A stretch of DNA of 64,000 nucleotides from Escherichia coli (GTDB lineage: Bacteria; Pseudomonadota; Gammaproteobacteria; Enterobacterales; Enterobacteriaceae), in the NCBI RefSeq assembly GCF_011045215.1, contig NZ_CP049201.1. The stretch is one strand, 5' to 3'. This document shows positions 1 to 64,000 of this stretch, one piece after another (position 1 is the stretch's first letter; each line of letters begins with the position of its first letter). The notes below the pieces were generated by a model, which did no database searches, was not told the origin of the DNA, and saw nothing but the letters and a program-made list of their open reading frames with translations. A program made the position numbers and the translations under genes.

Positions 1-209
1 TGAACAGGCTGATGGCATGGTTATCATCAAAACCAAGCTGATGGGTGAGATAGAGAATGAGTAAGGCACGCATGCCGTAAAAACTGAAGTACTCCCAGAT
101 TTGGATCGCCACGATATAGTATATCGCGCGCGGCTGTGAGGGTGTTTTCATGTGTTCTCCTTATGAGCAAAAAAGGGAAGTGGCAAGCCACTTCCCTTGT
201 ACGAGCTAA

Positions 210-2357: not shown

Positions 2358-2436
2358 AGTCATATCTCCAGGTAAAAAAGGCCCCTCCCAACACATGGGA
2401 CAAAATGAAAGGAGGAGCCTCGGAAAATACTTTTAA

Positions 2437-3771: not shown

Positions 3772-4136
3772 GCTCTTCTCCTAATTTCATTTTTGAATTT
3801 GGAGTCCGGGTCATGATGTATAACTATTTCCTGACCAGACCAAACTGGCGATAAGATTACTCACGAAAAAAGGATTAATCCTAAAGATTAGGTGAAATAA
3901 CACAAAAGTTTCTGTAAGTGAGAACTTGAGGTTTTTTATTAACACATCAGGATCGCAAGTTGATATCATGAAAAGATAAACATTCAATGTTTACAATGGA
4001 TTGCGTGACATTGTCTGGTTAAATTTATGTAATAAAAATTATGCGGCAAATAAATTGCCGCAACATATTATACCAACAGGAACATACAAAAACTCAACAA
4101 CAAATATTCCCTGGCATGAATCAACCCGGGAGTTAC
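3772..4136 (-). promoter_or_regulatory. cadBA promoter/operator region (expected CadC-binding sites)
   Basis: 365-bp AT-rich intergenic region between cadC and cadB. From established knowledge this interval carries Pcad and the CadC target sites; individual sites were not mapped here. Confidence 0.45.
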
Positions 4137-5675: not shown

Positions 5676-6254
5676 AATAGAAACTCATTCGAAAAGGGAA
5701 TGATGCAATGATAATTGCCACAACCTATTTTTACCATCTATAGATGGGTTTATTTACATATTATTGGTGAATGCAAGACGTTATTTTTACCAGCCATAAA
5801 CTTCTTGATTACATGGTATTAAGAAAGGATTTTACTGAGAACCAGAAGTAATATTCCTTACCATCAAAATTCATCATCTTTGCCAAAGAAAAATGTTCAG
5901 AAAATAATCCATGGAAAATTGTCCGGAGCGCTTACTATTTTAATGGATTGTTAGTCTTTGCATGAGCAAGCGGACTGATACATTTCTCTTTGTTCTCATT
6001 CAGAAAATCTCATCAGTCGCCGTTCAGACCGGTGTTGTGCTTTATGGATGCGTTACGCTCCTGATGACGTCATTTGACGTTCAACAGCATCACGGGGTCG
6101 CACGACATTTCACGTCAGTTAGTGCTATAGCTCAGGAACAAATTTTCCCGAATTGGGATATGCCCGCAAATTGCTGGTGATGTGGGGAGAATCTGGTTGA
6201 GTTCGGTAGAATTGATTTGGCGGCAGAACGCTTAAATCGTGGCGTCCTGAAACG

Positions 6255-6282
6255 AAAAACGGACCTCCGTGGAGGTCCGTTT
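6255..6282 (-). terminator. GC-rich hairpin immediately 3' of the tRNA-Phe remnant (likely pheU terminator)
   Basis: Perfect inverted repeat aaaaacGGACCTCCgtGGAGGTCCgttt; T/A runs on both sides so it could act bidirectionally. Confidence 0.6.
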
Positions 6283-6291
6283 ATATGAATT

Positions 6292-6340
6292 TGGTGCCCG
6301 GACTCGGAATCGAACCAAGGACACGGGGATTTTCAATCCC
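6292..6340 (-). repeat. pheU: 3' 49-nt fragment of tRNA-Phe (pheU-type); candidate attachment-site direct repeat at the island junction
   Basis: The reverse complement of TGGTGCCCGGACTCGGAATCGAACCAAGGACACGGGGATTTTCAATCCC equals the 3' 49 nt of E. coli tRNA-Phe including CCA. Identity stops abruptly at 6341 (the tRNA would continue CTGCTCT; the window has ATGGCAA). Not a functional tRNA. Confidence 0.8.
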
Positions 6341-6439
6341 ATGGCAATGAGCTTCTGATAATTAAGAGTTCGTCAAGTAGTTAAAAGAGTTTTTTCATGT
6401 GCATCCAGTCTCAACTTATAAATGAGAAGGATGTGCGTA

Positions 6440-7315
6440 ATGAACATTCTGCCCGTTGTGTCCACCAAAGGTGGCGAAGGAAAATCAACCCAGTCTGCTA
6501 ACCTTGCCGGTTTTCTGGCGGATGCCGGCCTCCGTACCCTGCTGATAGACGGAGACCATGCCCAGCCCACGGCAAGCAATATCTTTCCGCTGACGTATGA
6601 AGCGCCGGCCGGTCTTTTTGAATTACTGATGCGCACGGCTGACCTCAGTCATCCCGACAACATCATTTCCCGCACGGCTATCGACGGCCTTGACCTGATA
6701 GTCTCCAATGACCCCCATGAACAACTGAAAACGGCCATGCTTCATGCGCCGGATGGTCGTCTCCGTCTGCGTAATGTGCTCCAGCATCCGCTTTTCCAGA
6801 GCTATGACGTCATTGTGGTGGATTCACAGGGCGCGCGTTCCGTCATGCTGGAAATGATTGTGCTGTCTGCCACGGAGTCTGTGGTGGGGATGGTGAATCC
6901 GGTTCTGCCGGATGTGCGTGAGTTCATTCGCGGCACAGTCAATGTCATGGAAAACCTGTTGCCCTACCGTGAACTGGGTATCCCCCTGCCGAAAGTCCGC
7001 ACCCTGGTTAACTGCATGGATTATACGGCGCTGGCCAGACAAACACTGGCGGAGCTGACCGACATTATTAACTCCGGTCGCTACAGCAAAGTGCTTCCGG
7101 AAGGCGCGGTCACCCTGCTTTCAACACAGATTTATGACCTGAATATTTACAAACAGGGACACGCAGCCGGCCAGCCGGTGCACCGCCTTGAAAAAGCGTC
7201 TGCCCGTCGCAGTGATTCTGCGCTGGTCACCATGCACAGCCTGGCCTGTGAGTTGTTGCCGGAGTGGAGTGAGTTTTTTGATGTACTGCTGGAAAACGGA
7301 GGTGAAAGCCTGTGA
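6440..7315 (+). CDS. ParA/Soj-family partition ATPase
   Basis: Deviant Walker A KGGEGKST near the N-terminus (MNILPVVSTKGGEGKSTQSANLA), then LLIDGDHAQ. AAGGA RBS 9 nt before the ATG at 6440. First gene inside the island, as in soj-terminal ICEs. Confidence 0.85.
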   Translation: MNILPVVSTKGGEGKSTQSANLAGFLADAGLRTLLIDGDHAQPTASNIFPLTYEAPAGLFELLMRTADLSHPDNIISRTAIDGLDLIVSNDPHEQLKTAMLHAPDGRLRLRNVLQHPLFQSYDVIVVDSQGARSVMLEMIVLSATESVVGMVNPVLPDVREFIRGTVNVMENLLPYRELGIPLPKVRTLVNCMDYTALARQTLAELTDIINSGRYSKVLPEGAVTLLSTQIYDLNIYKQGHAAGQPVHRLEKASARRSDSALVTMHSLACELLPEWSEFFDVLLENGGESL

Positions 7316-7701
7316 ACAGAAAACTGATATGGCGTGCTGTGGCTTCAGCTTCAGTTTCCTGCCCCGGACACGATGAAGTGCATGTGTTTGTTGAGGCTGC
7401 AGATTACGAAGAAGCGAAAAAACATTTGTATGACCGTCTGGAGGAGGAATGGCAGCTTCCTGTGAGCCACATAACTTTCCACAACGTGTGGAATGAAAAC
7501 GAGCTATGTGAAATGTCTGCAGGTCCGAAGGTGCCTTCAGGCCTTCCCCTGCTTGAGTCGGGTGGGGGAAATGGTGAGGTCTTTTATGACCATAATCCGC
7601 TGCTCCTCATTGCTTCTCAGCGTCTCAGGGCTGTGATTGAAGGGGTGCTGAGTGTCCTGCCAGAGCGTGGTGAACAGGATGAGTGTGGTCGTGGAATTTA
7701 A
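7312..7701 (+). CDS. hypothetical protein (129 aa)
   Basis: ORF overlapping the parA stop (possible translational coupling). No recognisable motif. Confidence 0.4.
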   Translation: MNRKLIWRAVASASVSCPGHDEVHVFVEAADYEEAKKHLYDRLEEEWQLPVSHITFHNVWNENELCEMSAGPKVPSGLPLLESGGGNGEVFYDHNPLLLIASQRLRAVIEGVLSVLPERGEQDECGRGI

Positions 7702-7942
7702 GTCTCTGACAGGTCGCAGCCGGACAGTATGTGTCGGGTGTGGTTATTCCGGTGTTCGGTTTGGTGATGCTGCAGGCCAGGACACCCGGCAGTGGGTGAA
7801 GGTGAATCATGAGAGCGGGCTGGGGCTGTGCTCCGGCTGTGATGCCTTTCTTTTGCAGGAACGCCTGCGTCGTCAGCGGCATGACCCGCTTTTTTCATGT
7901 GGTGTTTCCGGCAAACATCGAAAAACAGAGGGGGCGATATGA
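7679..7942 (+). CDS. hypothetical small protein with two CxxC pairs (putative zinc ribbon)
   Basis: ORF with CVGC...CSGC spacing; start chosen at an internal ATG. Weak RBS, so low confidence. Confidence 0.25.
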   Translation: MSVVVEFKSLTGRSRTVCVGCGYSGVRFGDAAGQDTRQWVKVNHESGLGLCSGCDAFLLQERLRRQRHDPLFSCGVSGKHRKTEGAI

Positions 7943-8016
7943 CAGTTTTTGTAATGCATATCCCTGTCGGTACCGGGGACAGCGGACATGTGTGGTGTCC
8001 GCTGCATGCTGATGAA

Positions 8017-8445
8017 TCAGCCTTTACCCGTGAACGGGTCATCCAGCTTATCCAGACGTCTTTCTGCGTTGCGCAACACGTCCTGTGCTCCCGGGGTGGA
8101 TGCATATGCCTCCAGTTCAGCAGCAAGAGCCTGTTCCATTTCTGTTGCTGTCATGGCAGCAACATCGGCCGCAGAGCGGTTGTCGCGAATAATGAGGTAG
8201 CTGTGCAGGATATTAAGTGGTGCCACATTTTTATTGATGTTTTTCAGCCCCTGCTGAACCGCCAGCCAGTCGCCCAGCCACTGCAGGCGATACAGTTTGT
8301 GACGGTTGTAAGTTTCATTCGTTGTGTTACAGGCCATACGCCAGAACTCCTCAGACATGTTGATGAGCGTATTTTCACCTTCCGGCAGACTGAACGCAGC
8401 GAAGTCATCAATGCCGGACGGCAGTTGTTGATGATTTGTATTCAT
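8017..8445 (-). CDS. hypothetical protein (142 aa); first of three paralogous leaders MNT..QLPSGID
   Basis: AAGGA RBS 6-7 nt upstream. Its first 12 codons lie inside the repeated ~200-bp module. The overlapping plus-strand ORF 7897..8649 has no RBS and looks like an antisense artefact. Confidence 0.45.
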   Translation of the reverse strand: MNTNHQQLPSGIDDFAAFSLPEGENTLINMSEEFWRMACNTTNETYNRHKLYRLQWLGDWLAVQQGLKNINKNVAPLNILHSYLIIRDNRSAADVAAMTATEMEQALAAELEAYASTPGAQDVLRNAERRLDKLDDPFTGKG

Positions 8446-10413: not shown

Positions 10414-10564
10414 AAGGATGAGCCGATTCAATACAGTTCGGGGGAAAGGGGTTACAGAGCCCGTCTTTTTCCGTCATGACCTTTCCGTTACTCAACAGCC
10501 AGAACTGCAGGGGGTATTTCACTTCAGATTCAATGCCGGACGGCAGTTGTTTTTCTGTATTCAT
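10334..10564 (-). CDS. hypothetical small protein (76 aa), third MNTEKQLPSGIE paralog
   Basis: RBS AAAGGA and conserved N-terminal codons inside repeat copy C. Its 3' end overlaps the plus-strand gene 9676..10413 by 80 bp, so one of the two calls may be wrong. Confidence 0.3.
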   Translation of the reverse strand: MNTEKQLPSGIESEVKYPLQFWLLSNGKVMTEKDGLCNPFPPNCIESAHPFTPFQHVEKKALPDWLRAFHTDVSHS

Positions 10565-10760
10565 AAATTTTTTCCTTTAAAACAACTTGTTATGAATGAA
10601 CGAATGCTGTCCGTATCTTCTGACCGGGGGCGGCAAACTCACCGGTCTGAAAACGTACGGACAGTTACCGGGATTTTATTCCCGACAACTGTACGTCCGG
10701 CACCCTTTTTCCTTTTTTCACATAGCCAGGTTTCCGGCAGTCAGAGGGGGAGGGGACACC
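10545..10760. repeat. copy C of the ~200-bp repeated divergent-promoter module
   Basis: Direct alignment with copies A and B; lies immediately upstream of the helicase gene. Confidence 0.8.
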
Positions 10761-12128
10761 ATGGCTGAAATGTCTGTTCTCTGTGCATACGAAGCAGAGC
10801 AGGCCGTTCTGGGCGGTCTGATGCTGGAGAATGAACGCTGGGATGAAGTGGTGCTGATGCTGAGTCCTGACGATTTTTATGTGGCTCCGCACCGGGTCAT
10901 TTTTCGTGCCATGTCTGAACTGGCGGTGAATGGCCAGCCTCTGGACCTGATTACACTGTCAGAACTCCTGGAACATCAGGGCAGGCTGGACGTACTGGGC
11001 GGTTTTGCTTATCTGGCAGAGCTCAGCAAGAACACACCTTCTGCGGCCAACATCATGGCCTATGCAGGCATTGTGGTGGAGAAAAGCGTTCTGCGTCAGT
11101 TACAGGCCACCGGAAACACCCTGATTGCTGATGTGGCGGCACCGAACGCCACATCACGGGACGTGCTGGATACTGCAGAGCGGCGTCTGTTTGCTCTTGC
11201 GCAGAACAGGACGCTCCGGGAGCGCACGGAAGCCTCTCTTTCATCCGCGCTCGATACCGTTCTGCAGCAACTGGAAAGTGTGCTCGGTTCCGGCGGTGTG
11301 ACCGGTACCCCCACGGGATTTGACTGTCTGGATGAAATGACCTGTGGCCTGCAGCCAGGTGACCTGGTCCTGCTGGCTGCCCGTCCGTCAATGGGGAAAA
11401 CCTCTCTGGCACTGTCCATGTGTCTCAGTGCCGCCCTGCGGCGGACGGAAGAGAGCGTTCTGGTATTCAGCATCGAGATGCCGAAGGAGCAACTGATTCT
11501 GCGCATGCTTTCCATGCTGGGACGTGTGGAACTGAATCATCTGCGCAGTGGCAACATGGATGATGAGGACTGGACGAGGGTGTCATCTGCGGTTGGCATG
11601 GCGCTGGGTGACGGAGGCATGGATGCGCTGGGTGAGCGCCTGATAATTGATGACTGCAGCCAGCAGACACCGTCATCGCTGCGTGCCAGTGCCCGCCGTT
11701 ATACCCGCCTGTACGGTAAACCCGCTCTGATTATGGTGGATTATCTGCAGCTGATTCGTGCGCCGGAGCTGGAGAACCGCACCCAGGAAATTGCTGAAAT
11801 TTCCCGTTCCCTGAAAGCGCTGGGGAAGGAGCTGGGATGTCCGGTGCTGGCCCTCTCCCAGCTTAATCGTCAGGTGGAACAGCGTGCAGATAAACGCCCC
11901 AATAACGGTGACCTGCGTGATTCCGGGGCACTGGAGCAGGATGCTGACCTGATTATGTTTATTTACCGCGACGAGGTCTATAACCCCGATTCACTGGCAA
12001 AGGGGGAGGCTGAAATTATTGTCAGCAAGCAGCGTCAGGGGCCCACAGGCACGGTGCGGGTCAGGTTCGACGGTCGTTACACACTGTTTACGCCCTCTGA
12101 AAATGACGGACAGGGAGGATATGCGTGA
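10761..12128 (+). CDS. DnaB-like replicative DNA helicase (ICE-encoded)
   Basis: DnaB N-terminal signature (MAEMSVLCAYEAEQAVLGGLMLENERWDEV...), RecA-like core with Walker A AARPSMGKTSLALS and Walker B LIMVDYLQL. GGGAGG RBS. The ORF-track start at 10596 lies inside the repeat and is unlikely. Confidence 0.85.
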   Translation: MAEMSVLCAYEAEQAVLGGLMLENERWDEVVLMLSPDDFYVAPHRVIFRAMSELAVNGQPLDLITLSELLEHQGRLDVLGGFAYLAELSKNTPSAANIMAYAGIVVEKSVLRQLQATGNTLIADVAAPNATSRDVLDTAERRLFALAQNRTLRERTEASLSSALDTVLQQLESVLGSGGVTGTPTGFDCLDEMTCGLQPGDLVLLAARPSMGKTSLALSMCLSAALRRTEESVLVFSIEMPKEQLILRMLSMLGRVELNHLRSGNMDDEDWTRVSSAVGMALGDGGMDALGERLIIDDCSQQTPSSLRASARRYTRLYGKPALIMVDYLQLIRAPELENRTQEIAEISRSLKALGKELGCPVLALSQLNRQVEQRADKRPNNGDLRDSGALEQDADLIMFIYRDEVYNPDSLAKGEAEIIVSKQRQGPTGTVRVRFDGRYTLFTPSENDGQGGYA

Positions 12129-22248: not shown

Positions 22249-22312
22249 TTCCGGGTTGACTTTCCATGGATGTGTTTTAAAAATAACCGGGCTTATTTGC
22301 TGCATCTGCAGC

Positions 22313-22496
22313 CAGCCAATGTTTCAGCAGTCTGAGAGAAACGCCTTCGGGTGACTGCCAGCCAACGTTTCACCGGCCTGAGAGAAACACCTTCGGGTGG
22401 CCGGAATATCCTCGTAGCCTGAAAGAGGATGCCTGTGGGCGGTACATCCGTTTAACCTCTGGAAACGGATATCACTGTTCAGTGATTGAGGTCTTT
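22313..22496 (+). ncRNA. structured repeat element R1 (two pseudoknot-like units plus terminal hairpin domain); candidate sRNA or single-strand structural element
   Basis: Units CCAGCCAAyGTTTCa-stem-TGAGAGAAACrCCTTCGGGTG-stem, then ..GGTACATCCGTTTAACCTCTGGAAACGGATATCACTGTTCAGTGATTGAGGTC followed by TTTTT. Homologous to R2 and R3 with compensatory stem changes. Confidence 0.45.
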
Positions 22497-43902: not shown

Positions 43903-44284
43903 GATGCTGTGCCTGAAATATCCGGAGCCGGAAGAGGTGTCACAGGGGCATCCTGCCGGAAGTGTGTTTGTGCTGCCGCCACAGGGGCAGCCCGGTGCCA
44001 GCCGTGCCACCCGGGATAATCTTGAGCGTCTGCGCGGACATCTGCAGAAGCAACTGGGGCTGGTGACGCGTATCTGTTGCCAGCCTCAGCGTGTGGGGGT
44101 GAACAGCAGCGTGGCGGTGGCACTGGAAGGGGGGACGGGGCAAAAGGTGCATCTTCTGCTGACGGTAAGTGGTCATGAGGGCTGGCCGTCGGAGGAGGAG
44201 TATGCGCATCCCCGCTGGTATATCCCGGTGACCGATGCTGCTGATTTGTGTTATCTGCTGCTGTGGCTGGCTGAGTTACAGTGA
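43903..44284 (+). CDS. hypothetical ICE protein (127 aa)
   Basis: ORF immediately after the ATPase gene. Confidence 0.45.
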
Positions 44285-44383
44285 GGGGATATGTGCACTG
44301 ATTTTAATGCTGCTCCGGGGCTCGCACTGACCGGGATGACAGTGATATATGGCGTATTGCAGATTAAGTAAAGAGGATGAAGT

Positions 44384-44626
44384 ATGAACTCTGGTTATGA
44401 TTTACCGGGAGGGTTGGGGCCGGTAAGGGAACGGATAATCGATGACCCATGGTTTTTTCTGTCTGTCGCACTGATTCTGTTGGTCGTGGTATATGTCGTG
44501 TCACTGGGGCTGAAAGAAGTCATTTTCAGTGTCAGAAAGGGTAAAGGGAAGAGAAATATGCTCAGGAAGGCGTACCGCTCCCGGGGCTCTGCTGAGGTGC
44601 GGGGGATGAAAAAGTCTGAGAAATGA
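44384..44626 (+). CDS. small membrane protein (80 aa)
   Basis: AGAGGA RBS; single TM helix, basic C-terminus. Confidence 0.45.
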   Translation: MNSGYDLPGGLGPVRERIIDDPWFFLSVALILLVVVYVVSLGLKEVIFSVRKGKGKRNMLRKAYRSRGSAEVRGMKKSEK

Positions 44627-44710
44627 ATCAGGTTATTATAAAAGGTGATATGTTTTTATTAGTATTACAGAACAGATATGTTATTTACAGCCTGATACAT
44701 TTTCCGTTTG

Positions 44711-44733
44711 CCGCACTCCGGTGCGGTTTTTTC
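44711..44733 (+). terminator. rho-independent terminator
   Basis: CCGCACtccgGTGCGG followed by TTTTTTCTT. Confidence 0.6.
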
Positions 44734-45608
44734 TTCCTGAATGTCTGTTTTTAACAGGGGCGCAGTGGCGGATGTGTATTCTGTGCTGCCCTGCGAGTAC
44801 CCGCAGAGTCATATCTGTTCATGAGCGATTCACATTGCTGCAGTTGAAATAACCCTGTACTTTTTGCAACAATATAAGGTGTTGGTAGTGTTTATTTTCC
44901 ATAATGACAAATCCGGAGTGATATTGCCTGCAGGTGGCGGGCATTTTTTTTAGTATATCTTCGCATGAGCCATTGCCATACCGCTGACTTTTTTTCGCGC
45001 TTACGTCACAGGTGATGGCTCAGCCGAAGATATACTGGTTGCAGAGATGAAGTATGGCTGTTCGTTATAAAATTACGGCAATAATAATGAAGCCCGGTAA
45101 TCCACCGGTGCTCTGGACCCGTTACTCCGGAAATAAAATGACCCGGGCTGAGTGTGAGAATATGTTTTCCATTCCAAAAGAGCCTGGTCGTTCTTTTGGC
45201 GATAAGGTAAAAGTACAGGATTTTCTGTGTGTGGCGGTTGAAGGTGAAAAAGTCTGAAAATGCCATGTTGCAATAAAAATGAATGTTATATGATGATAAC
45301 ATCCGGGTTGCCAGGTGAACTGGCTCATGATGATATGATGAGGCATGAACGCTAAACCTCCTTACATTGAGACGTAATTTTTCCGGGCCTGGTTGCCCGG
45401 TTTTTTTATTACGGAATACACAAAAATCCGAAATGCGATATATGAACGGAACTTACGGGCAGTAATATTCTGTGAGTTTTCCCGGTGGCATACCTGTGCC
45501 ATGAGCGCCTTGTTCTGATGCCTTGTGGGCTGACAGGCAATAACAATATAGTGTGAAAAATGCCTGATTTCAGCGTGCCGTGGTTCCTCCGGATAATACA
45601 CCGTTGAA

Positions 45609-45818
45609 TTATTTTCTGAAAAACTTTCTGAGCAGGGCGCCAGCGATTAATAAGCCACTGCATATCAGTATGAGCAGAATTGAGACGCCAAAAGCGGGAG
45701 GTGGGCATTCCCATTCATTCGGGCATTCCCCGTTCAGATAAACAATGTATGTGCTGGTTGCGATATAACCCGCAATCAGTATTATCAGCACCAGTATGGT
45801 GTTAAATATTTTATACAT
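45609..45818 (-). CDS. small two-TM membrane protein (69 aa) in an AT-rich insert
   Basis: GGAG RBS 7 nt upstream of the second ATG; two hydrophobic helices separated by CPNEWECPPP. Confidence 0.4.
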   Translation of the reverse strand: MYKIFNTILVLIILIAGYIATSTYIVYLNGECPNEWECPPPAFGVSILLILICSGLLIAGALLRKFFRK

Positions 45819-46002
45819 CGGCATACTCCGTGATTGTCCTGTGTCCTCTCCGGGATTCTGACAGCGCTCCGGGCTGATTGTTCATGAATTTTACCTGTTG
45901 CTCTTCCCGTTAATTTTCAGTATCCGGTTTTGAATTAATTGATGACCCTGCTTCCGGTTCTGCGCACGCTGTCAGGTATGTATTGCCTGACGGAGTCATT
46001 CC

Positions 46003-50823: not shown

Positions 50824-51231
50824 TTAATTTCCATCGCGCTCCCATTGTTCTCTCCATATAGGACGCTCCCATTCTTCTCTCCATATAGGACGCTTCCATT
50901 GTTCTCCTTCGTACTCAAAATTCAAGTCATGCCTCTTTTCAAGACTATCACATTGTGTATTAAATCCGGCACCAACACATCGAAGAATGTATGCAACAGC
51001 CCATGTAAACGCCAGACACCCGAGAACTGCCGTGATACTGAAGAGTGCACAAACCACAATTCCGGTTAATCCAATAGCCAGCGGAAGCCGTCCAGTCCAG
51101 GCTGGCAGATGCCTTTTTCTGGCCGCATGAATCCAGAAGTTGTCCCACCGACGAAGCGTTCTTACGAGTCGTTTCCACTGAATGGCAAACCGTTGTCCTC
51201 TGAGATAAGCGGCTTTGTTAGTCGTTTTCAT
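50824..51231 (-). CDS. membrane protein with C-terminal tandem WKRPIWRE-type repeats
   Basis: Two TM helices; the C-terminus contains EGEQWKRPIWREEWERPIWREQWERDGN, mirrored at DNA level by repeats at 50830-50900. Confidence 0.4.
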   Translation of the reverse strand: MKTTNKAAYLRGQRFAIQWKRLVRTLRRWDNFWIHAARKRHLPAWTGRLPLAIGLTGIVVCALFSITAVLGCLAFTWAVAYILRCVGAGFNTQCDSLEKRHDLNFEYEGEQWKRPIWREEWERPIWREQWERDGN

Positions 51232-51357
51232 AAGAAAAACTCCTAATTTTCAGTCCTATGTAATGAATTTAATGTTCAAACTATAAGCCATTTTTGTATA
51301 AATATAGGTGAAAAACCATACAGAATCTACCGATAAATGTCTCAAAAGGAGGTGTAA

Positions 51358-51921
51358 ATGTTGAGTAAAAAATTGTTATTGGTTTGTGTTTCATGCCTGG
51401 CGTTAACTGCCTGTTCTGTTGATGAAATTGCTTCGGTTAACAAGCAAATTAGTGATGGTGCTTTTGCTTTAACGGGGGCATTGCGTGGAAACTCATCGTC
51501 TGCGGATTCAAATGGAATGCCGGTTTTAAGTCAGGCGCAAAAACCGGCGACAAAATCCAGAACGCAGGAATATTCAGTACCCGTTGATGTTGATACAGCT
51601 GCTGCTCGCCTTAAACGTTATTACGAGTTTATATCTTTCGATGAAATTGAAGCTATCCGCAAAAAAAACACCAGTGGGGAATGGGCGGCATCAGCAATAC
51701 TTGAACAGAACCCTGTATGGGAGGTTATGCCCGGTAGTTATTATAAAATGGGTCAAAACTGGGACGATTATGATCATCTGACTATTGAAGTGGAAAAGAA
51801 TGGGGCGGGAAGTAAATTATATATTACGTTTAAATCGCCATCGGATAAAAGACTGAATAGTGAAAGTCTCAGGAAACTGATGTTGAATATTAAAGATGTT
51901 GCTGAAGGGAAAATTCGTTAA
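51358..51921 (+). CDS. AT-rich cargo lipoprotein (187 aa)
   Basis: Perfect AAGGAGG RBS; lipobox LALTAC; promoter-like TTCAAA-16-TATAAA upstream. Confidence 0.6.
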   Translation: MLSKKLLLVCVSCLALTACSVDEIASVNKQISDGAFALTGALRGNSSSADSNGMPVLSQAQKPATKSRTQEYSVPVDVDTAAARLKRYYEFISFDEIEAIRKKNTSGEWAASAILEQNPVWEVMPGSYYKMGQNWDDYDHLTIEVEKNGAGSKLYITFKSPSDKRLNSESLRKLMLNIKDVAEGKIR

Positions 51922-51941
51922 TTGATGATGAGATCGTGTTT

Positions 51942-52070
51942 ATGTTAAAGAAAATTGTGCTCGGATTGTTAATTGTTGCGCTGGTCGCTTTTTCTTTTGA
52001 TTTTGGTCGGCGGTGGGAGCTGTCTAAAACAGCAGAATATTGTTCTTCAATTGGCAAAAAAAATATCTGA
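51942..52070 (+). CDS. possible small membrane peptide (42 aa)
   Basis: Short ORF (MLKKIVLGLLIVALVAFSFDFGRRWELSKTAEYCSSIGKKNI) between the lipoprotein and DUF2726-like genes; weak RBS. Confidence 0.25.
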   Translation: MLKKIVLGLLIVALVAFSFDFGRRWELSKTAEYCSSIGKKNI

Positions 52071-52127
52071 TGCTGGTCCCGCATATTGCGTCGAAAAGTA
52101 ATCTGTAAATGGAGATGGTTTGATTTT

Positions 52128-52772
52128 ATGGACTATATTGTTATTTTCGTAGTAGGTTTTTTTATCGGTCTTGTATATGGTAGCGGTAAAAAATATGTAA
52201 AAGATAAACATGTGAGTTATTACCGTGAAAATCGTAATAACGATTTCCAGAAAGCAAATAGTAATATTGAAAAATATGAAAGAGATAATAAGGTATACAG
52301 AAATCCCCGCTGGGAGGGAAAAGATGAAATATTCTGGGGGATGATGAATTCGCAAATTTGCCTTGAAAGAAAACGTGGGCCATATTTATGCACTGATCCT
52401 GAAAATAAGTATTTGTTGAAATTAACTGAGTGGTTTGGTGACATTTGTTACATAAATTGTCAGGTGTCTTTAGGGCAATTGGTTGATTTTAAGGCTAAAA
52501 ATAATAAGCAATTTACTGAGGAGGAAAGAAGGCGGTTTTTTAGTATCTATGCTTCGATGGCAATGGATTATGTACTTGTGTACAAAAAAACAAAAAGAAT
52601 TGTTTGTGTCATAGAGCTTAATGATGGTTCACATAATAAAGAGGAACGAATCGAACGAGACAGAAAAGTTGCTGAGTTATTGAAACGTTGCGATATTTCA
52701 TTTCTCCCGGTGTCTATTGATAAAATGGATATTAAACCCGACATATGGAAAGACAGGGGAAATAGAGAATAA
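52128..52772 (+). CDS. membrane-anchored DUF2726-like nuclease-fold protein
   Basis: GGAG RBS; N-terminal TM helix; C-terminal motif MDYVLVYKKTKRIVCVIELNDGSHNKEERIERDRKVAELLKRCDISFLPV, matching the D..(I/V)E.DG.H...D..R pattern of DUF2726/DUF559-type endonuclease folds (recalled). Confidence 0.55.
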   Translation: MDYIVIFVVGFFIGLVYGSGKKYVKDKHVSYYRENRNNDFQKANSNIEKYERDNKVYRNPRWEGKDEIFWGMMNSQICLERKRGPYLCTDPENKYLLKLTEWFGDICYINCQVSLGQLVDFKAKNNKQFTEEERRRFFSIYASMAMDYVLVYKKTKRIVCVIELNDGSHNKEERIERDRKVAELLKRCDISFLPVSIDKMDIKPDIWKDRGNRE

Positions 52773-52914
52773 ATAATTAATTTGTATCTACAGAATATTA
52801 ATGCTCAGGCTGGTTAACCCCGGCCTTTTTATTTTATATACAGACGTTCCTGTGAGACTATTGACATATAAAAGCCCGTCTTGCTAATCTTTTCCCGCTT
52901 TAATGTCGCTGTAT

Positions 52915-53101
52915 GCGACCATCCAAATCCCCAGTAGTCTGAGAGGGGAGCCTTCGGGCGGCTACCAGCCAATGCTTTAACGATCTGAGAGAAGCGCCTT
53001 CGGGTGATCGTAATGTTCTCGTAGCCTGGAAGAGAACGCCTTACGTGGCGGTACATCCGTTTAACCTCTGGGAACGGATATCACGGAACCGTGATTGAGG
53101 T
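52915..53101 (+). ncRNA. structured repeat element R2 (homolog of R1 and R3)
   Basis: Same unit architecture as R1 with compensatory stem substitutions (TCCCC/GGGGA in place of GTTTC/GAAAC; ACGATC/GATCGT in place of GCAGTC/GACTGC) and the conserved 3' domain GGTACATCCGTTTAACCTCTGGGAACGGATATCACGGAACCGTGATTGAGGTC. Confidence 0.45.
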
Positions 53102-53763
53102 CGTGCTGGCCTGAGGCCAGTTGTTCTATGCAGGCATCCTGCAGATGCCATGATTCTTTACTTACAGGCTTATCACGCCTGCATATCAATACGTTAAGTC
53201 TTTCAGAGACATGTCTGAACGAACTGACGTCTTTAATCTGTTCGGGCATTCGCCCCGGGCTTCTTACGACTGTACGCACTGCATAAGGCCATCTGAAATC
53301 TGGCCGCTTGCGTGCGTATGTGGAGTTTGAAGCTGCGCGGCGTCACTTTTGTCGGCGTGTAACGATGACAAAGTGACGCATGCGCGTCTGCTTTACGAAC
53401 CCGCACAAACCGTCGCGTCACGGGATGTTTTTTAACATTTGAAGAAGTGACCAGACGTGAGAGTGTTTTTTCAACCTTCTCTGCAAACGTACAGACGATA
53501 CCGTGAATAACGTTCATCGACCGTTCTTCTTGCAGAATTTTATTGTTTTTTAAGGAGTTTTATGTAGTGAGATGCCGAACCGGCGATACCACTTATTAGG
53601 GGTGGTATCGGGGGCGACCTGGAAACAGGTACAGCGAATGCTGCAGTCGGTGTGCAACACCGGTTTGTTACCCCTCAATACCTAAACAGTCTGCGCTACC
53701 CTGGCGCTCAGGCACTCATTACCCGAAGGATCGCAACGCTTAACCGTGTCGCCAGGGAGAATG

Positions 53764-53850: not shown

Positions 53851-54753
53851 GTGTCCAGACGTGAAAAATTACTGAAACAGGATTTGGTTGCTCATATCCG
53901 GAAAGACCGGGGGAGTTTCAAGAAGCTGAGTGACTATTCCCGGATCATGCACCGGTTTGCGGAAAGACTGGCTAAACTGAATATACAGATCAGTTCTGCT
54001 GCGCAGGTAAAAGTGCGGCATATTGAATTATATATGAACAGCAGGAGTGATGTTTCAAAGCGAACCAGAGAAAATGAAATGTCTGCAATACGGGTTATGT
54101 TACGTCAGGCCGGTAAACATAAAATGGCAGATCCTGAACATCCCCGTCTCAGCAATAAGGCGTTAGGTATTTCAGGAGGAAGCCGTAAAGGGACAAAGAA
54201 ATTAATTACGGATGAGCGTTTCCGGGAAATTCTTCAGCGCGTGGAAGCAAAAGATAAAGGGGTGGCAGCTGTTGTTAAACTGTCACGTTATCTCGGTCTG
54301 AGAAATGAAGAAGCTGTCCAGTCGGCCAAATCGTTACGGACGTGGAAAAAAGCGTTACAACGGGGAGATGAAAAAATAAGGGTGATTTTTGGTACGAAAG
54401 GGGGACGGGAAAGAATGACGACGGTTGTTGACCGGGATAAAGTTCTTGATGCTGTTAATTACGCACTCAAATATGCCAGTGAGCATAATGAACGTCTGAT
54501 AGACAGAGATAATCTTAAGTCGGCAATGGATTATTATCTTAATACGTTACGACGTTATGGAGAACTGAAAGGCGGAGATGAAACCGCACACAGTTTTCGG
54601 TACAGTTACGCCGCAAGTGCCATGAAATATCATATTATGAATGGTTACAGTTATAAGGAGGCACTTGCACTGACATCAATTGATCTTGGTCATGGTGATG
54701 GCAGAGGTCGATATATTGAACAGGTTTATTGTCAGTTATTAGGCTATGAGTAA
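53851..54753 (+). CDS. tyrosine site-specific recombinase (phage-integrase/Xer-like catalytic domain)
   Basis: GTG start with GAGGAGG RBS. Catalytic-domain boxes: LSRYLGLRNEEAVQ (box I Arg), HSFRYSYAASAM (H-x-x-R), GHGDGRGRYIEQVY (catalytic Tyr). Confidence 0.65.
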   Translation: MSRREKLLKQDLVAHIRKDRGSFKKLSDYSRIMHRFAERLAKLNIQISSAAQVKVRHIELYMNSRSDVSKRTRENEMSAIRVMLRQAGKHKMADPEHPRLSNKALGISGGSRKGTKKLITDERFREILQRVEAKDKGVAAVVKLSRYLGLRNEEAVQSAKSLRTWKKALQRGDEKIRVIFGTKGGRERMTTVVDRDKVLDAVNYALKYASEHNERLIDRDNLKSAMDYYLNTLRRYGELKGGDETAHSFRYSYAASAMKYHIMNGYSYKEALALTSIDLGHGDGRGRYIEQVYCQLLGYE

Positions 54754-54785
54754 TAATTTATATCGATTTTGTGTGGGTAAATATC

Positions 54786-55109
54786 ATGGATTGTACTATT
54801 TTAATGAAAATAATCTCTGTAAAGGAGATTACAAAAGATTCGCCTTTGTGGTCACACTACCTGGTGCGATATATTGATTCCGGATATCAGGCTGAGTTTG
54901 AATGTGAAGGAACAGCAGATAAATGGGGCATCTATGATGAATGGGACATCTGTGAGTCGATTGCGGATTATTTTGACGTGGTGGGAGATTTTGACTGTGA
55001 TGTCAGACGGACGGGAAGAATAATACTGATGAAAGGTACCTGTGTTTTTCCTCCAGGAGAACCGGTTAAGGGAACACATAATATTCCTTTTTGGATCGAT
55101 GTTGAATAG
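54786..55109 (+). CDS. small strongly acidic protein (107 aa); candidate DNA-mimic or anti-restriction-like protein
   Basis: Very high Asp/Glu content (for example DEWDICESIADYFDVVGDFDCD); AT-rich codon usage. Confidence 0.4.
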   Translation: MDCTILMKIISVKEITKDSPLWSHYLVRYIDSGYQAEFECEGTADKWGIYDEWDICESIADYFDVVGDFDCDVRRTGRIILMKGTCVFPPGEPVKGTHNIPFWIDVE

Positions 55110-55157
55110 CTTGACATCCATCTTTTGTGCCTTAAAAATATACAGGCTAACTTTGTT

Positions 55158-55414
55158 ACCTTCGGGTGACCATCCAATGTTTCGGTAGTCTGAGAGAAAC
55201 GCCTTCGGGTGACTACAGTTATCTTCGGATAACCATCCAAATCCCCGGTAGTCTGAGAGGGGAGCCTTCGGGCGACTACCAGCCAATGCTTTGACGATCT
55301 GAGAAAAGCGCCTTCGGGTGATCGTAATGTCTCCGTAGCCTGAAAGGGGACGCCTTAGAGGGTGGTACATCCGTTTAACCTCTGGAAACGGATATCACGG
55401 AACAGTGATCGAGG
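55158..55414 (+). ncRNA. structured repeat element R3 (three units plus terminal domain)
   Basis: Largest copy: a partial unit, then GTAGTC/GACTAC, GGTAGTC/GACTACC and ACGATC/GATCGT units, and the conserved 3' domain ending ..GATCGAGGTC followed by TTTTAT. Confidence 0.45.
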
Positions 55415-59811: not shown

Positions 59812-60504
59812 ATGGCCACCTTTATCGACCATCAGAAGGCCTTCATTTCGCTGTTTAATCAGACCGCCCGTTATCACAAACGCCATAAGGTGTTTGAAGA
59901 CTTTGTCAGCTGCAGTGTGATTGCCCTGGAGAACCGGCTTCAGTTCAGTGAGGCACGGGAGCAGAAGTACCTGCGAATCGTCAGTGGTTATGAAAAGCAG
60001 GATGTTATCAACATGGCGCATTTGCTTGCTCATGTCATTGAGGGACTGGAGCAGGGATTCTGTGACTTTCTGGGCAGCGTGTTCATGCAACTGGAGCTGG
60101 GGGATAAATACCGGGGCCAGTTTTTCACGCCCTGGAGTGTGGCCAGAATGATGGCACAGATGCAGCTGGGGAATGTGACGACGCTGTTTGAGAACAAGCC
60201 CTTTATCACGCTCCGTGAACCGGCCTGTGGTGCCGGCAGTATGATACTGGCTATGGCTGACACCCTGAACCATTCGGGATATCCGGCATATCGCAGGATG
60301 TGGGTGTCGGCAACGGATATTGACCCGCTGGCAGCCGGCATGGCGTATATACAACTGTCGCTGTGTGGTGTGGCCGGTGAAGTGGTGATTGGCAACTCAT
60401 TGTGTAATGAGCGACGCCGGGTACTGCTGACGCCCGGGCATTACCTCGGGAACTGGTCATATCGTCTGCGTCATTCTCAGGAACAGGTCACAGCTGATGC
60501 CTGA
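59812..60504 (+). CDS. short methyltransferase-like protein: HsdM-type SAM-binding motif without the NPPF/Y catalytic motif
   Basis: REPACGAGSMILA (motif I-like) and ..ATDIDPLAAGMAYIQLSLCGVAGEVVIGNSL, but the ORF ends about 30 aa later and is followed by a clean terminator. Confidence 0.45.
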   Translation: MATFIDHQKAFISLFNQTARYHKRHKVFEDFVSCSVIALENRLQFSEAREQKYLRIVSGYEKQDVINMAHLLAHVIEGLEQGFCDFLGSVFMQLELGDKYRGQFFTPWSVARMMAQMQLGNVTTLFENKPFITLREPACGAGSMILAMADTLNHSGYPAYRRMWVSATDIDPLAAGMAYIQLSLCGVAGEVVIGNSLCNERRRVLLTPGHYLGNWSYRLRHSQEQVTADA

Positions 60505-60517
60505 TTTTTTATCACTA

Positions 60518-60549
60518 CGCCAGTCTTCGGGCTGGCGTTATTATATTTG
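60518..60549 (+). terminator. rho-independent terminator
   Basis: CGCCAGtcttcgggCTGGCG followed by TTATTATATTTG. Confidence 0.6.
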
Positions 60550-60863
60550 CGTTGCTTGTTATTGGGGGCGGTTTCTATGTACGTCAGGAGCATTTTTAAA
60601 CCGATGTGGATAAGTAACTGATTGATTCATCGTGATCAGCTATCGCTTCTAAGTTATTGCTTTTCTCTTATCGCATTTAGGTTATCTCATGTCCCTAAAG
60701 GTCTGCCAAACACCGTATAGCGTGGGAGTACACCCTACCGCGATAACGTAACCGTACAATATTGTACGTTTCCCAAACGCAGCTCTGTGGGGGAAATTTG
60801 GGTTAAGTATCGACCGGTGTATGATAGGGCAATATTTAACCAGAGAAATTAAAAGGATTTGTT

Positions 60864-63089
60864 ATGTCTAAGCCGGAAAACGGCCAACAGCTGCCCGCCA
60901 TCTGTTGGCCGGTGCCTAAAAATAACCGGGGCGGGGAGTTCAGTAATCTCGAGGAGATGTTGGCGCATCTGGAGGGCGAGGCCACCGGGCACTGGCTGAT
61001 TGGCCGTAATGGTATGTGGCACGGGGGAATTCATATCACGGATATCACGACTCCGTGGTGTGCGCTCAGCGGTCAGTCGATGAATGAGGCGGTGGATTTT
61101 CCTGTGCCGTTTAAGGGAGAGCAGCCCGTGCGCTGCATGGCGGATGGTGAGGTGGTGGCGTACCGGATAAACCGGGATTCTCTCAGCGTGCCGTGGTACT
61201 GGGGGGATTTACACTACTCCGGGTCTTTTGTACTCATTCGCCATCGTATTCAGCCAGGGGAAACGGCAGAGAGCGGGCTGACCTTTTACACCCTGTATAT
61301 GCACCTCGCGCCCTGGCTGGCTTACCCGGAGCAGGACAGTACGGCGTTTAAGGTCGCAGACAGACAGTATCTGAATGCGTATGCGGACGCGTCCCGGCAG
61401 TGGGTGGTGGCAGAGTTGCCACCCGGTACACGTGTGATATGGGACAAAGCGGTAAGTGCAGACACCATGACAGGGAGCAACGGTCGGCAGTATGCGCGCG
61501 TTACGCTGGCGGAGCCGGTGACGGGCAGGATGAACCTGAACGCCGGAGACCGGGTATGGACAGTATGCGATAAAGGGAATCTGGTTCCGGTTCGTGACAG
61601 TATCATCCGTCCGGCGTGGTGGTCGCCGTTCCTGCCGCCGTCACGCGAAACGGTACAGTTTGATACGGTGGTGTGTCCGACACCTTACCCGATTAAAGCC
61701 GGTGCCCCGGTGGGGCATCTGGGCTATTTTCAGGTACCCACGGATAACGGGCATGAAAAACGCTATCAGGTGCATATCGAATGCCTGACAACGGACGACC
61801 TGCCGCGCTTCCTGAGCAACCCGGAAGGTGTGGGGCGTGACACTCCCGCCTTTGCCCGTTGTCCGAAGGATATACCGGTGTATCTGAAATATACGGACGG
61901 AGAAATACACAAGAGCCTGGTAACCACGGAGAGCGAAACGGTGATGGCGCTGTCAGGTCAGGTGGTGACGGACAAAGAGGGTAAACGCTACTGGTCGGGG
62001 GGAGGGGTATCACGCGGACTGCTGGCGGAGTCAGATGTGCAGTTGTTATCCAGGTATGACCTGGCTGACCGGGGTTTTGAGGCCACGGAGGATAACCCGG
62101 TGAGCTTTGACCATCTCGACGGAAAGAGACAGCCGAAGGGGCTGGTGAGGACGATTTTTGAGCGTTTTTTCAACGTGGCGGATAATGACGGTAAGCTCTA
62201 CAGCAAAATAGTGGCATTCAACTACCGGCAGCTGCTGGACCAGATTGATGACGCCAAATCCCCCCGGTATAACCCGGAACTGTACCGGCGCGCGGTACAG
62301 AACCCGTCAATGCGTGAGCATCTGTATCGTTTGTGCGTGAAACATCCCAGCGAGTGGTATTACTCGTCGGAGTCTTCGGTATGGAAAGCATTTTTTACGC
62401 CCCAACTGAAAAGAGACGCCACGGAGTGGTACGCCTACAGTATGAAATTTTTGACGGATCTCCGCTGGATGTACCGTGTGGCCGGAATGGTGGAAAATCC
62501 GTGGCATATGCACCCACTGGTATTTCTTGATGCTATTAATGATATAGGTATGACTCTCGATGAAGCCAGAGTTCGGGCATTTATGAGAATGATTCGAGTT
62601 GGCGAAGGGACTGTTGGTGAGGTTGGGTATGAAACATTGTTTGGTAAGCAGTCATTCATAAAAGATTATCATAAAGATTTTAGTGATCACCCGAACATAA
62701 TAATTACTAGAGGTACATTAAAGTCTTCTGCGGCTGGAGCATATCAAGTAATGGGTTATACATGGAATGATCCTAACATGTTGTTTTATCGCAAAAAATA
62801 TGGGATCGTGGATTTTTCTCCGAAATCACAAGATGAGTTTTGTGTGCTAATCCTTAAATATAAAAGGAAAGGGGCTTTAAAACTTATCATTGATGGTGAC
62901 ATTGATGGGGCTTTAGATATTTTGAGTTACGAATGGGCAAGTCTTCCCCCTGCCAGATACCCTCAACCAACCAAGAGTAAGAGTGAGGTTATGTCCTTAT
63001 ACAATAAGTATTTATTAGAAGAGCTCTTAGGGGAGACAGATCTTCACCTGCCAATCGGCTACATAAAACAAGTTTATAATGGTGTGTAA
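60864..63089 (+). CDS. two-part protein (741 aa): GC-rich N-terminal region fused to an AT-rich C-terminal lambda-lysozyme-R-like lytic transglycosylase domain; candidate peptidoglycan-targeting toxin or bacteriocin
   Basis: The C-terminal ~170 aa align with recalled phage lambda R: GEGT (catalytic Glu), FSDHP, KSSAAGAYQ, DFSPKSQD, KGALKLIIDGDIDGALD, WASLP. Base composition changes sharply near 62550. The N-terminus has HxH-type motifs (WHGGIHIT; YMHL) of uncertain meaning. Confidence 0.6.
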   Translation: MSKPENGQQLPAICWPVPKNNRGGEFSNLEEMLAHLEGEATGHWLIGRNGMWHGGIHITDITTPWCALSGQSMNEAVDFPVPFKGEQPVRCMADGEVVAYRINRDSLSVPWYWGDLHYSGSFVLIRHRIQPGETAESGLTFYTLYMHLAPWLAYPEQDSTAFKVADRQYLNAYADASRQWVVAELPPGTRVIWDKAVSADTMTGSNGRQYARVTLAEPVTGRMNLNAGDRVWTVCDKGNLVPVRDSIIRPAWWSPFLPPSRETVQFDTVVCPTPYPIKAGAPVGHLGYFQVPTDNGHEKRYQVHIECLTTDDLPRFLSNPEGVGRDTPAFARCPKDIPVYLKYTDGEIHKSLVTTESETVMALSGQVVTDKEGKRYWSGGGVSRGLLAESDVQLLSRYDLADRGFEATEDNPVSFDHLDGKRQPKGLVRTIFERFFNVADNDGKLYSKIVAFNYRQLLDQIDDAKSPRYNPELYRRAVQNPSMREHLYRLCVKHPSEWYYSSESSVWKAFFTPQLKRDATEWYAYSMKFLTDLRWMYRVAGMVENPWHMHPLVFLDAINDIGMTLDEARVRAFMRMIRVGEGTVGEVGYETLFGKQSFIKDYHKDFSDHPNIIITRGTLKSSAAGAYQVMGYTWNDPNMLFYRKKYGIVDFSPKSQDEFCVLILKYKRKGALKLIIDGDIDGALDILSYEWASLPPARYPQPTKSKSEVMSLYNKYLLEELLGETDLHLPIGYIKQVYNGV

Positions 63090-63527
63090 ATGAAAAATAT
63101 ATTCCTTATATTGATATTTGTATCATCATTTACTTATGCTGGTTCTGATTTTGGAACTTGGGGAACATCATGTGATGATAATGGGTTCATTCTTTCATTA
63201 AAAGAAGATTCATCTCCATTTGTTGTTAGTGATAATCAGATAGTTGTATCCATACATTCAAGAAGGATTAACCATAAAGTTATTGATGTTTTTTTTGATG
63301 ATACATTAGATCTTGGGATAGGAGGCATGGGGTTTAACTGGGGGGATGTTGATAAAACCAAAAAAATAGCCGAGTTAACATATTCTGAAAATAATAAATG
63401 GCTGATGAAATGGTTTGGTTTTTGGGATGCAAAAAAAAAGACACGTTTTTGGGTGAAAGAGCCTGATTTTATCCAAACATACGCAAAAAATAACGTCATA
63501 ACATTGATTAAATGCGAAGAACAGTGA
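63090..63527 (+). CDS. AT-rich secreted small protein (145 aa); candidate cognate immunity protein
   Basis: ATG overlaps the upstream stop (TAAATG); signal peptide MKNIFLILIFVSSFTYAG; same low-GC composition as the lysozyme-like domain. Confidence 0.5.
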   Translation: MKNIFLILIFVSSFTYAGSDFGTWGTSCDDNGFILSLKEDSSPFVVSDNQIVVSIHSRRINHKVIDVFFDDTLDLGIGGMGFNWGDVDKTKKIAELTYSENNKWLMKWFGFWDAKKKTRFWVKEPDFIQTYAKNNVITLIKCEEQ

Positions 63528-64000
63528 TGGTTTGACTGCAATGGCTAAATTGAGGCAGCAATAATTTCAGGAAAACAAAAATGATCTTCTTGAGATCCTT
63601 TTTTCTGAGAGTAGTTTCTTGTCCTGTAAATGAAAAAACGCCGGAAGGCGGGTTGGTTCGGGTTCGTTGATCTACCAAATCTTTGAAGCTGGGCGGTAAC
63701 AGGACTCTATGTGGGAGACAGTTACCAATACATTATAGTACTTCCCAGTAATCTGCTGATCAGACCGGGCCAGCCAGAGATGCAGGTCGGTGATGATCAA
63801 CCGTCGTATACGAATCTGTATGGTGTTGAGCTGCTGTCCCGATTTAGTATCAGACTGGATGTAGTGAATCTGTTTTTCCGGACGAGCATTTCATGGTGAA
63901 TTGTCGTGGTGTTATATTAAAGTGTTGTCTGAAAAGATAGACAAAGTAGGATGTACTGGAATAGCCACATTTTTCAGCAACGTGTTTCACTGAGTATTTC

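Follow-up and report, generated by a model that had tools for sequence, protein, structure and literature searches.

The window analysed here is a 64-kb stretch of Escherichia coli DNA (64,000 nucleotides of contig NZ_CP049201.1, assembly GCF_011045215.1), most of which belongs to an integrative and conjugative element (ICE). Near its right end lie two adjoining genes, the first encoding a protein of 741 amino acids (aa) that is an exact match of WP_164475979.1 / QIF14975.1 and the second a protein of 145 aa. The larger protein belongs to those type VI secretion system (T6SS) effectors that carry WHIX, a bipartite T6SS secretion domain called after its WHxxxH motif (Fridman et al. 2025, PLoS Biol 23:e3003053; PMC12135965), and its C-terminal domain appears to form, together with the downstream gene, a toxin-immunity cassette that is exchanged at a fixed point of the reading frame. 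The features of the two genes are as follows.

60864..63089, + strand: effector gene, subclass I WHIX (WP_164475979.1 / QIF14975.1), from the open reading frame (ORF), its translation and the exact accession match
60864..62537, + strand: stretch that encodes the WHIX domain (aa 1-558), with a GC of 0.565 and kept throughout the family
61017..61034, + strand: WHxxxH motif, W52-H53-G-G-I-H57 in the translation, the name-giving motif of the WHIX domain
62511..62537, + strand: junction motif H550-PLVFLDA-I558, the final conserved codons ahead of the exchangeable cassette
62538..63089, + strand: linker and predicted lambda-R-like GH104 lytic transglycosylase domain (aa 559-741), GC 0.379, from a PDB match and homolog names
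63090..63527, + strand: presumed cognate immunity gene, 145 aa, GC 0.317, its ATG directly after the TAA of the toxin gene

Composition break and exchangeable cassettes

The effector ORF is translated as one frame with no interruption, and its base composition changes abruptly within that frame. In a profile taken in 300-bp windows, GC content is 0.56-0.60 across 61000-62200, 0.36-0.38 past approximately 62550 and 0.30-0.33 in the downstream gene. The shift is largest at third codon positions (GC3), which fall from 0.66 in the WHIX coding part to 0.33 in the remainder of the ORF and 0.25 in the downstream gene, and second positions within the ORF (GC2) differ as well (0.44 vs 0.34). The log-likelihood ratio for a break within the ORF is approximately 31-32, whereas none of the window's 13 further ORFs that span 400 aa or more exceeds 9.2 and codon shuffling gives a maximum of 11.2 (0 of 2000 shuffles reached the observed value), demonstrating that the break is real and far beyond chance. 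An earlier note on this DNA, made from the letters alone, had described such a break inside a single ORF and AT-richness running on into the next gene, both of which are confirmed by these measurements; its position for the break, about 62550, lay 15-30 nt too far to the right, the maximum-likelihood change-point being 62520 and its 2-log-unit interval of support spanning 62485-62533. The AT-rich string quoted there, gatgctattaatgatataggtatgactctcgatgaa, corresponds to 62529-62564.

The composition break coincides with a homology junction at 62537/62538 (residue 558, ...WHMHPLVFLDAI), which is evident from a comparison with three E. coli plasmids.

pRHB39-C14_4 (L002), 6,678-bp ColE1/Rop plasmid: whole module 60790-63601 in common at 93.9% identity, its C-terminus and downstream gene being those of the window
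pRHB06-C19_2 (L003), IncF plasmid: only 60790-62538 in common at 93-94% identity, followed by a pesticin-like C-terminus and a DUF1311/LprI gene
EC14 p3 (L001), 5.9-kb ColE1/Rop plasmid: only 60791-62537 in common at 91-94% identity, followed by a GH19-like C-terminus and an unrelated, oppositely oriented gene

When identity to pRHB06-C19_2 and EC14 p3 was calculated in 30-nt blocks, it was 87-100% through 62537 and 17-37% from 62538. The N-terminal 558 residues are 93-95% identical in the E. coli plasmids and are fused, at the identical codon, to the pesticin-like or the GH19-like domain. Further C-termini with other downstream genes were found in chromosomal copies of Salmonella, Citrobacter and two Enterobacter species; in all seven relatives (these copies and the three plasmids), the shared part ends at residue 558 at the protein level, in the motif ...WHMHPLVFLDA(I/L), in which W547, H548, H550 and P551 reach a conservation of 90% or more among 100 representatives of the family. 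Thus, at least four different C-termini and partner genes are joined at this residue, and the downstream gene covaries with the C-terminus, LprI/DUF1311 genes being located after pesticin-like domains and the 145-aa family after GH104 (in the window, on pRHB39-C14_4 and at the locus L011). The seven relatives also share the compositional pattern, with a GC content of 0.56-0.60 in the N-terminal part, 0.37-0.42 in the C-terminal part and 0.29-0.41 in the 450 nt past the stop codon, and the deficit relative to the WHIX part is approximately 0.18-0.21 in every cassette examined.

The proposal that a C-terminal toxin domain was replaced together with its presumed immunity gene is supported by these comparisons, since relatives carry the same N-terminal part with other C-termini and other downstream genes, on plasmids as well as in chromosomal copies, and always joined at one codon. 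Uniform composition was not seen in relatives with the same C-terminus: pRHB39-C14_4 and another of the seven (L011) show the drop in GC as well. The break is most probably a recombination junction, and it exists because the toxin domain and the immunity gene form a low-GC cassette joined to the GC-rich WHIX part. Such a pattern, in which one conserved N-terminal part is combined through a fixed join with various C-terminal toxins and each toxin has a downstream gene to itself, is that of polymorphic toxins, and CdiA with its VENN motif and Rhs with its PxxxxDPxGL motif (Zhang et al. 2012, PMC3482391) similarly combine a conserved delivery part and a short junction motif with variable cassettes of deviant composition that encode the C-terminal toxin plus immunity. 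Unlike in those systems, the junction motif of WHIX proteins is HPLVFLDA[I/L], the delivery domain and the secretion system are different, and the cargo consists almost exclusively of peptidoglycan hydrolases.

WHIX domain, predicted toxin domain and presumed immunity gene

The homology of the window protein to Va01435 (WP_005373349.1), the founding effector and a protein secreted by Vibrio alginolyticus, is bipartite and indicates membership in the WHIX family. When the first 452 residues of Va01435, taken from S1 File of the WHIX study, were compared by BLASTP, region 1 matched aa 14-150 at E=1e-22, where 34% of the residues are identical, and aa 455-509 were matched by region 2 (E=5e-5). 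In addition, WP_164475979.1 itself is listed both in the file for the WHIX tree of Fig 1B and in the CLANS file on C-termini of PMC12135965, and WP_252499454.1, the homolog on EC14 p3, is in the WHIX tree too. The WHIX catalogue comprises 4,434 proteins. The effector class, this exact protein included, is therefore already known (published in 2025). According to that study, WHIX is N-terminal in subclass I and preceded by a second toxic domain in subclass II ("double-blade"), the C-termini nearly always target peptidoglycan, with lambda-lysozyme-like domains explicitly among them, and the flanking genes encode immunity proteins with signal peptides, such as DUF1311/LprI.

A more extensive picture of the family was obtained by searching 5.8 billion proteins. 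The conserved N-terminal part makes up approximately 75% of the protein and is 82-95% identical among close homologs; alone, it matches 822 representative proteins at E<=1e-3 (exhaustive search, 50% clustering), many of which are longer at the N-terminus by 130-175 residues. W52, H53, G54, G55 and H57 of the WHxxxH motif are at least 90% conserved in the 100 representatives. The C-termini of 120 close homologs comprise GH104, pesticin-like (PF16754), VgrG3-like C (PF21277), GH19 (PF00182) and GH73 glucosaminidase (PF01832) domains as well as unclassified ones, and Pfam matches in 100 distant representatives include GH19, M23, pesticin, glucosaminidase, phage lysozyme, VgrG3-C, muramidase, GH108 and NlpC/P60, in addition to single matches to Anthrax_toxA and Ntox44, so that the repertoire of peptidoglycan-targeting domains is that of the close homologs.

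The C-terminal domain of the window protein is predicted to be a peptidoglycan-targeting toxic domain. A phmmer search of PDB matched lambda lysozyme (1AM7/3D3D, E=8e-19) and aligned aa 571-703 with R residues 9-136, and near-identical proteins are named "glycoside hydrolase family 104 protein" by NCBI; the Pfam Phage_lysozyme model did not detect the domain. The C-terminal 170 residues are thus homologous to the R endolysin of bacteriophage lambda (GH104), and the catalytic Glu is kept: GEGT of the window protein is aligned to SEGT of lambda, which makes E581 (62604-62606) the equivalent of Glu19. In contrast to lambda R, the domain is fused behind a delivery domain of 558 aa and paired with a presumably periplasmic partner, and its proposed use is against other cells rather than for phage release.

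The 145-aa protein is presumed to be the cognate immunity protein. Its N-terminus, MKNIFLILIFVSSFTYA/GS, resembles a Sec signal peptide as judged by eye, and the 741-aa protein has no signal peptide. The family is very small (11 protein clusters among all sequences searched), and the 145-aa protein has no match in Pfam or NCBIfam. At three loci (L011, L012 and L013), the gene of this family begins at the base right after the stop codon of an upstream ORF; for L011, this ORF proved to encode a WHIX protein of the GH104 type.

The fold of the WHIX part was also considered. An AlphaFold2 (AF2) model built from 100 family members has a predicted local distance difference test score (pLDDT) above 90 over approximately aa 10-560, which collapses exactly at the junction; unrelated C-termini are mixed in the alignment, so that the C-terminal domain has a low confidence (pLDDT 26-69), and this part of the model was not used. 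H53, H57, H304 and E306 are invariant, H53 and H57 being so in the trimmed alignment A2 (the WHIX core alignment, insertion removed), and by sequence pattern the invariant residues sit at the HxxxD of M23 peptidases and at the second His of their HxH; WHIX does not conserve the two His positions that are catalytic in M23. We infer from this pattern that WHIX may be a degenerate LytM-like domain. Some relatives already bear the NCBI label "M23 family metallopeptidase", and an M23/LytM-like core of WHIX is not mentioned in PMC12135965. No match to aa 1-558 was found in PDB by phmmer, and the A2 profile returned only chance SH2 matches there (E ~1). The peptide groove of a LytM-like domain may correspond to the "deep cavity" that was proposed to cap the VgrG tail.

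Separately, EF-hand Pfam models match 9 of the 100 WHIX representatives at E<=0.001 and approximately 26 of them at E<=0.1 (A1 alignment). The family consensus has a DxxxDGxxSxxE loop in its second region, whose counterpart in the window, QIDDAKSPRYNPE, looks degenerate. A gene fragment on pRHB06-C19_2 (7521-8354) is named "calcium sensor EFh" in GenBank, a name that an EF-hand-like loop may explain.

Genomic surroundings of the module

The window begins with the chromosomal cadA-cadB-cadC locus (1-6400), and from approximately 6.4 kb to 60540 it consists of an ICE of the SPI-7/PFGI-1 type with ParA, a SPI-7-type DnaB, ParB, TopB, TraD, TraC and TIGR037xx proteins. A related ICE is found in more than 15 E. 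coli chromosomes at 96-97% identity, and homology to it ends at 60487-60544, just past an N-6 DNA methylase gene, where E. coli C311 carries a fimbrial operon. Four further features border the two genes.

60517..60538, + strand: terminator-like hairpin after the N-6 DNA methylase gene of the ICE, approximately where homology to related ICEs ends
60578..60793, strand not assigned: fragment of about 206 bp at the left junction of the module, which recurs beside insertion sequence (IS) remnants on plasmids
60790..60863, + strand: 74-bp upstream leader with an AAGGA Shine-Dalgarno sequence, the left edge of the captured module, with homology to the three E. coli plasmids starting at 60790/60791
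63578..63740, strand not assigned: relic of a ColE1-type plasmid replication-origin region right after the immunity gene, from plasmid matches

The GC-rich N-terminal part had been taken for ICE backbone in the earlier note, an assignment that does not hold, as the related chromosomal ICEs of E. coli have no such gene and the module is 94% identical to that of the 6.7-kb ColE1/Rop plasmid. That the WHIX part and the ICE are alike in GC is a coincidence, as the N-terminal part has a GC content of 0.56-0.60 wherever it is found. Instead, the ICE acquired the whole effector-immunity module from a ColE1-type plasmid as part of its variable cargo, since the module matches a ColE1/Rop plasmid and has the origin relic beside it. 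The relic is 76-84% identical to 2312 mostly small mobilizable plasmids, and 63576-63728 is 90% identical to EC14 p3; it is incomplete, because neither RNAI nor any other RNA was matched by Rfam in 60400-64000, and is probably not a functional replicon. On the other side, the fragment of about 206 bp occurs at 91-95% identity on several hundred plasmids of E. coli, Salmonella and Klebsiella, frequently with a partial IS66/ISNCY transposase gene next to it, and in pE2855-5 it adjoins a partial ISNCY transposase pseudogene. None of the complete RefSeq genomes of E. coli has the arrangement of ICE plus module. There was no informative match for 63741-64000, and neither a tRNA gene nor the tyrosine integrase of a usual ICE end lies in the window, implying that the element continues past its right edge.

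Elsewhere, most close E. coli homologs are located on contigs of 3-8 kb, and chromosomal copies form isolated two-gene islets amid housekeeping genes. This distribution is consistent with small ColE1-type plasmids being the main carriers of the effector family in E. coli, which is unusual for effectors of a T6SS.

Several other elements were observed within the ICE. Patches of low GC (0.36-0.45) at 44000-46000, 51000-53000 and 54500-55000, surrounded by ICE sequence of 0.55-0.62, may be extra cargo or defence inserts; the patch at 51-53 kb contains a DUF2726 gene and small hypothetical genes in a related ICE. Three STAXI RNA motifs (22298-22448, 52904-53057 and 55154-55279) and one EFASI RNA motif (53564-53721) are above the Rfam gathering thresholds.

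Proposed function, competing explanations and meaning

The interpretation that we prefer, with a probability of approximately 0.85, is that the pair encodes an orphan WHIX cargo effector of the T6SS and its immunity protein, and that the cassette is exchanged at the junction. The WHIX domain (aa 1-558) would dock on the C-terminal tail of the VgrG spike for export by the T6SS, the GH104 domain (aa 559-741), once in the periplasm of an attacked neighbour, would cleave the glycan strands of its peptidoglycan, and the 145-aa protein in the periplasm of the producer would neutralise incoming toxin from kin. Recombination at HPLVFLDA(I/L), i.e., at 62537/62538, would exchange the cassette of C-terminal toxin plus immunity gene and leave the composition break. 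For this strain we infer a compatible T6SS and VgrG, as well as the enzymatic activity of the toxin and the immunity function of its partner.

The module resembles the subclass I "Lambda lysozyme-like" effectors (PMC12135965) in its WHxxxH motif, its N-terminal bipartite domain, its exchangeable peptidoglycan-targeting C-terminus and its downstream gene with a signal peptide, and it does not differ from them in kind; a GC break at the junction and carriage on small ColE1 plasmids or ICEs are not mentioned in that study. Awe1 of Aeromonas jandaei and Va01435 of V. alginolyticus have a homologous WHIX domain and were experimentally shown to be secreted, and loading on the VgrG tail has been proposed. 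WHIX-mediated export by the T6SS and VgrG loading were demonstrated in Aeromonas and Vibrio, WHIX being sufficient for secretion and the loading of Awe1 requiring the 14 C-terminal residues of VgrG4 (PMC12135965). Awe1 is a double-blade effector of subclass II that has two immunity genes and whose own gene adjoins vgrG4; the window protein, in contrast, has a single toxic domain and is an orphan encoded at a distance from all T6SS genes.

Several points weigh against a T6SS effector. T6SS genes were found neither in the 64-kb window nor adjoining the effector copies on small plasmids and chromosomal islets, so the E. coli clade is tied to a T6SS by homology and by the association published at the level of genomes, a T6SS being present in more than 98% of WHIX host genomes (PMC12135965). 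The T6SS role proposed for this clade is carried over from experiments on other WHIX effectors, no member of the clade being among the proteins tested in that study. Moreover, Pfam and NCBIfam scans gave no match for the 741-aa protein, and for this reason the domain identities were drawn from sequence matches in PDB, the annotation of homologs and published work; the signal peptide of the 145-aa protein looks like one to the eye.

A separate observation concerns a Citrobacter portucalensis plasmid (L004), where a WHIX homolog at 6001-8127 is split into several short ORFs and is probably a pseudogene. A PAAR-domain gene lies approximately 3 kb downstream (10486-10890), the sole T6SS-related neighbour in the contexts examined.

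In E. coli, small multicopy ColE1 plasmids appear to be the main vehicles of the pair, which here sits inside an ICE, and in no case are T6SS genes close by. A more novel reading regards the pair as primarily a stabilisation system of the mobile element, in which loss of the plasmid or ICE would lead to loss of immunity and then to killing by T6SS-armed siblings. Taken jointly, such a role (or independence of the clade from the T6SS) and the identity of WHIX as a degenerate LytM/M23 domain, whose invariant His-His-His site and peptide groove would hold the VgrG tail, are unlikely.

A competing explanation of low probability is a T6SS-independent bacteriocin of the colicin or pesticin type, whose N-terminal 558 residues would serve receptor binding and translocation and which producers would release and the target would import into its periplasm via an outer-membrane receptor. 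This explanation was favoured first, on account of the ColE1 plasmids: besides the homologs on short contigs, close relatives are carried by complete ColE1/Rop plasmids of 5.9-6.7 kb with only the toxin and immunity genes. It also fits the pesticin-like muramidases among the C-termini, the missing T6SS genes nearby and a cargo that acts entirely in the periplasm, as an import restricted to the periplasm would give. The likeness to pesticin and its immunity protein Pim (Yersinia pestis pPCP1) and to colicin-like bacteriocins extends to the muramidase-type toxin, the periplasmic immunity, the small ColE1-type plasmid and the modular killing domains. However, pesticin has TonB-box and FyuA-binding domains, whereas the window protein has an unrelated WHIX domain, no SOS box and a predicted injection by the T6SS. 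The bacteriocin was demoted when the N-terminal part was identified as WHIX from the published family, when no CTGT-N8-ACAG-like LexA box was found in 60500-60864 even with one mismatch allowed, and when no lysis gene proved to be annotated on the 6.7-kb plasmid. In addition, colicin-like translocation or receptor-binding domains related to those of known colicins or pesticin are missing. To our knowledge, colicin M and pesticin also come without lysis genes, so that the lack of one is only partly discriminating.

It is very improbable that the protein is a VirB1/PrgK-like housekeeping hydrolase that opens the peptidoglycan for conjugation of the ICE, with the downstream gene as its regulator. 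This candidate was rejected because related ICEs wholly lack the gene; the module is also present on non-mobilizable small plasmids and isolated chromosomal islets, it is the partner and not the protein itself that has the apparent signal peptide, and the exchange of C-terminus and partner as cassettes is the pattern of a toxin-immunity conflict rather than of a machine part. Finally, an assembly chimera, or a domain-specific bias in codons or amino acids within an undivided, vertically inherited gene, could be imagined from a window that is a single assembly and from the difference in GC2, to which amino-acid composition contributes, but it is effectively refuted by relatives with alternative C-termini that share the N-terminal part and carry unrelated sequence from the next codon, by the identical gene found independently in a Logan assembly (3.3-kb contig) and in many NCBI records, by the dominance of the GC3 shift and by the low GC that runs into a separate gene.

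That a composition break in raw sequence correctly flagged a modular toxin-immunity cassette is a validation of this heuristic. The additions to the published class of WHIX effectors, namely a fixed junction codon and motif, a family-wide drop in GC, the capture of a plasmid module by an ICE and a LytM-like core, are small, and none of them overturns current understanding. If the LytM-like core is true, it would offer a structural mechanism for the loading on the VgrG tail, which was left open in PMC12135965. Since the E. coli effectors circulate on small ColE1-type plasmids and as ICE cargo, it appears that the ammunition of the T6SS can spread apart from the gun, on elements that do not carry it.

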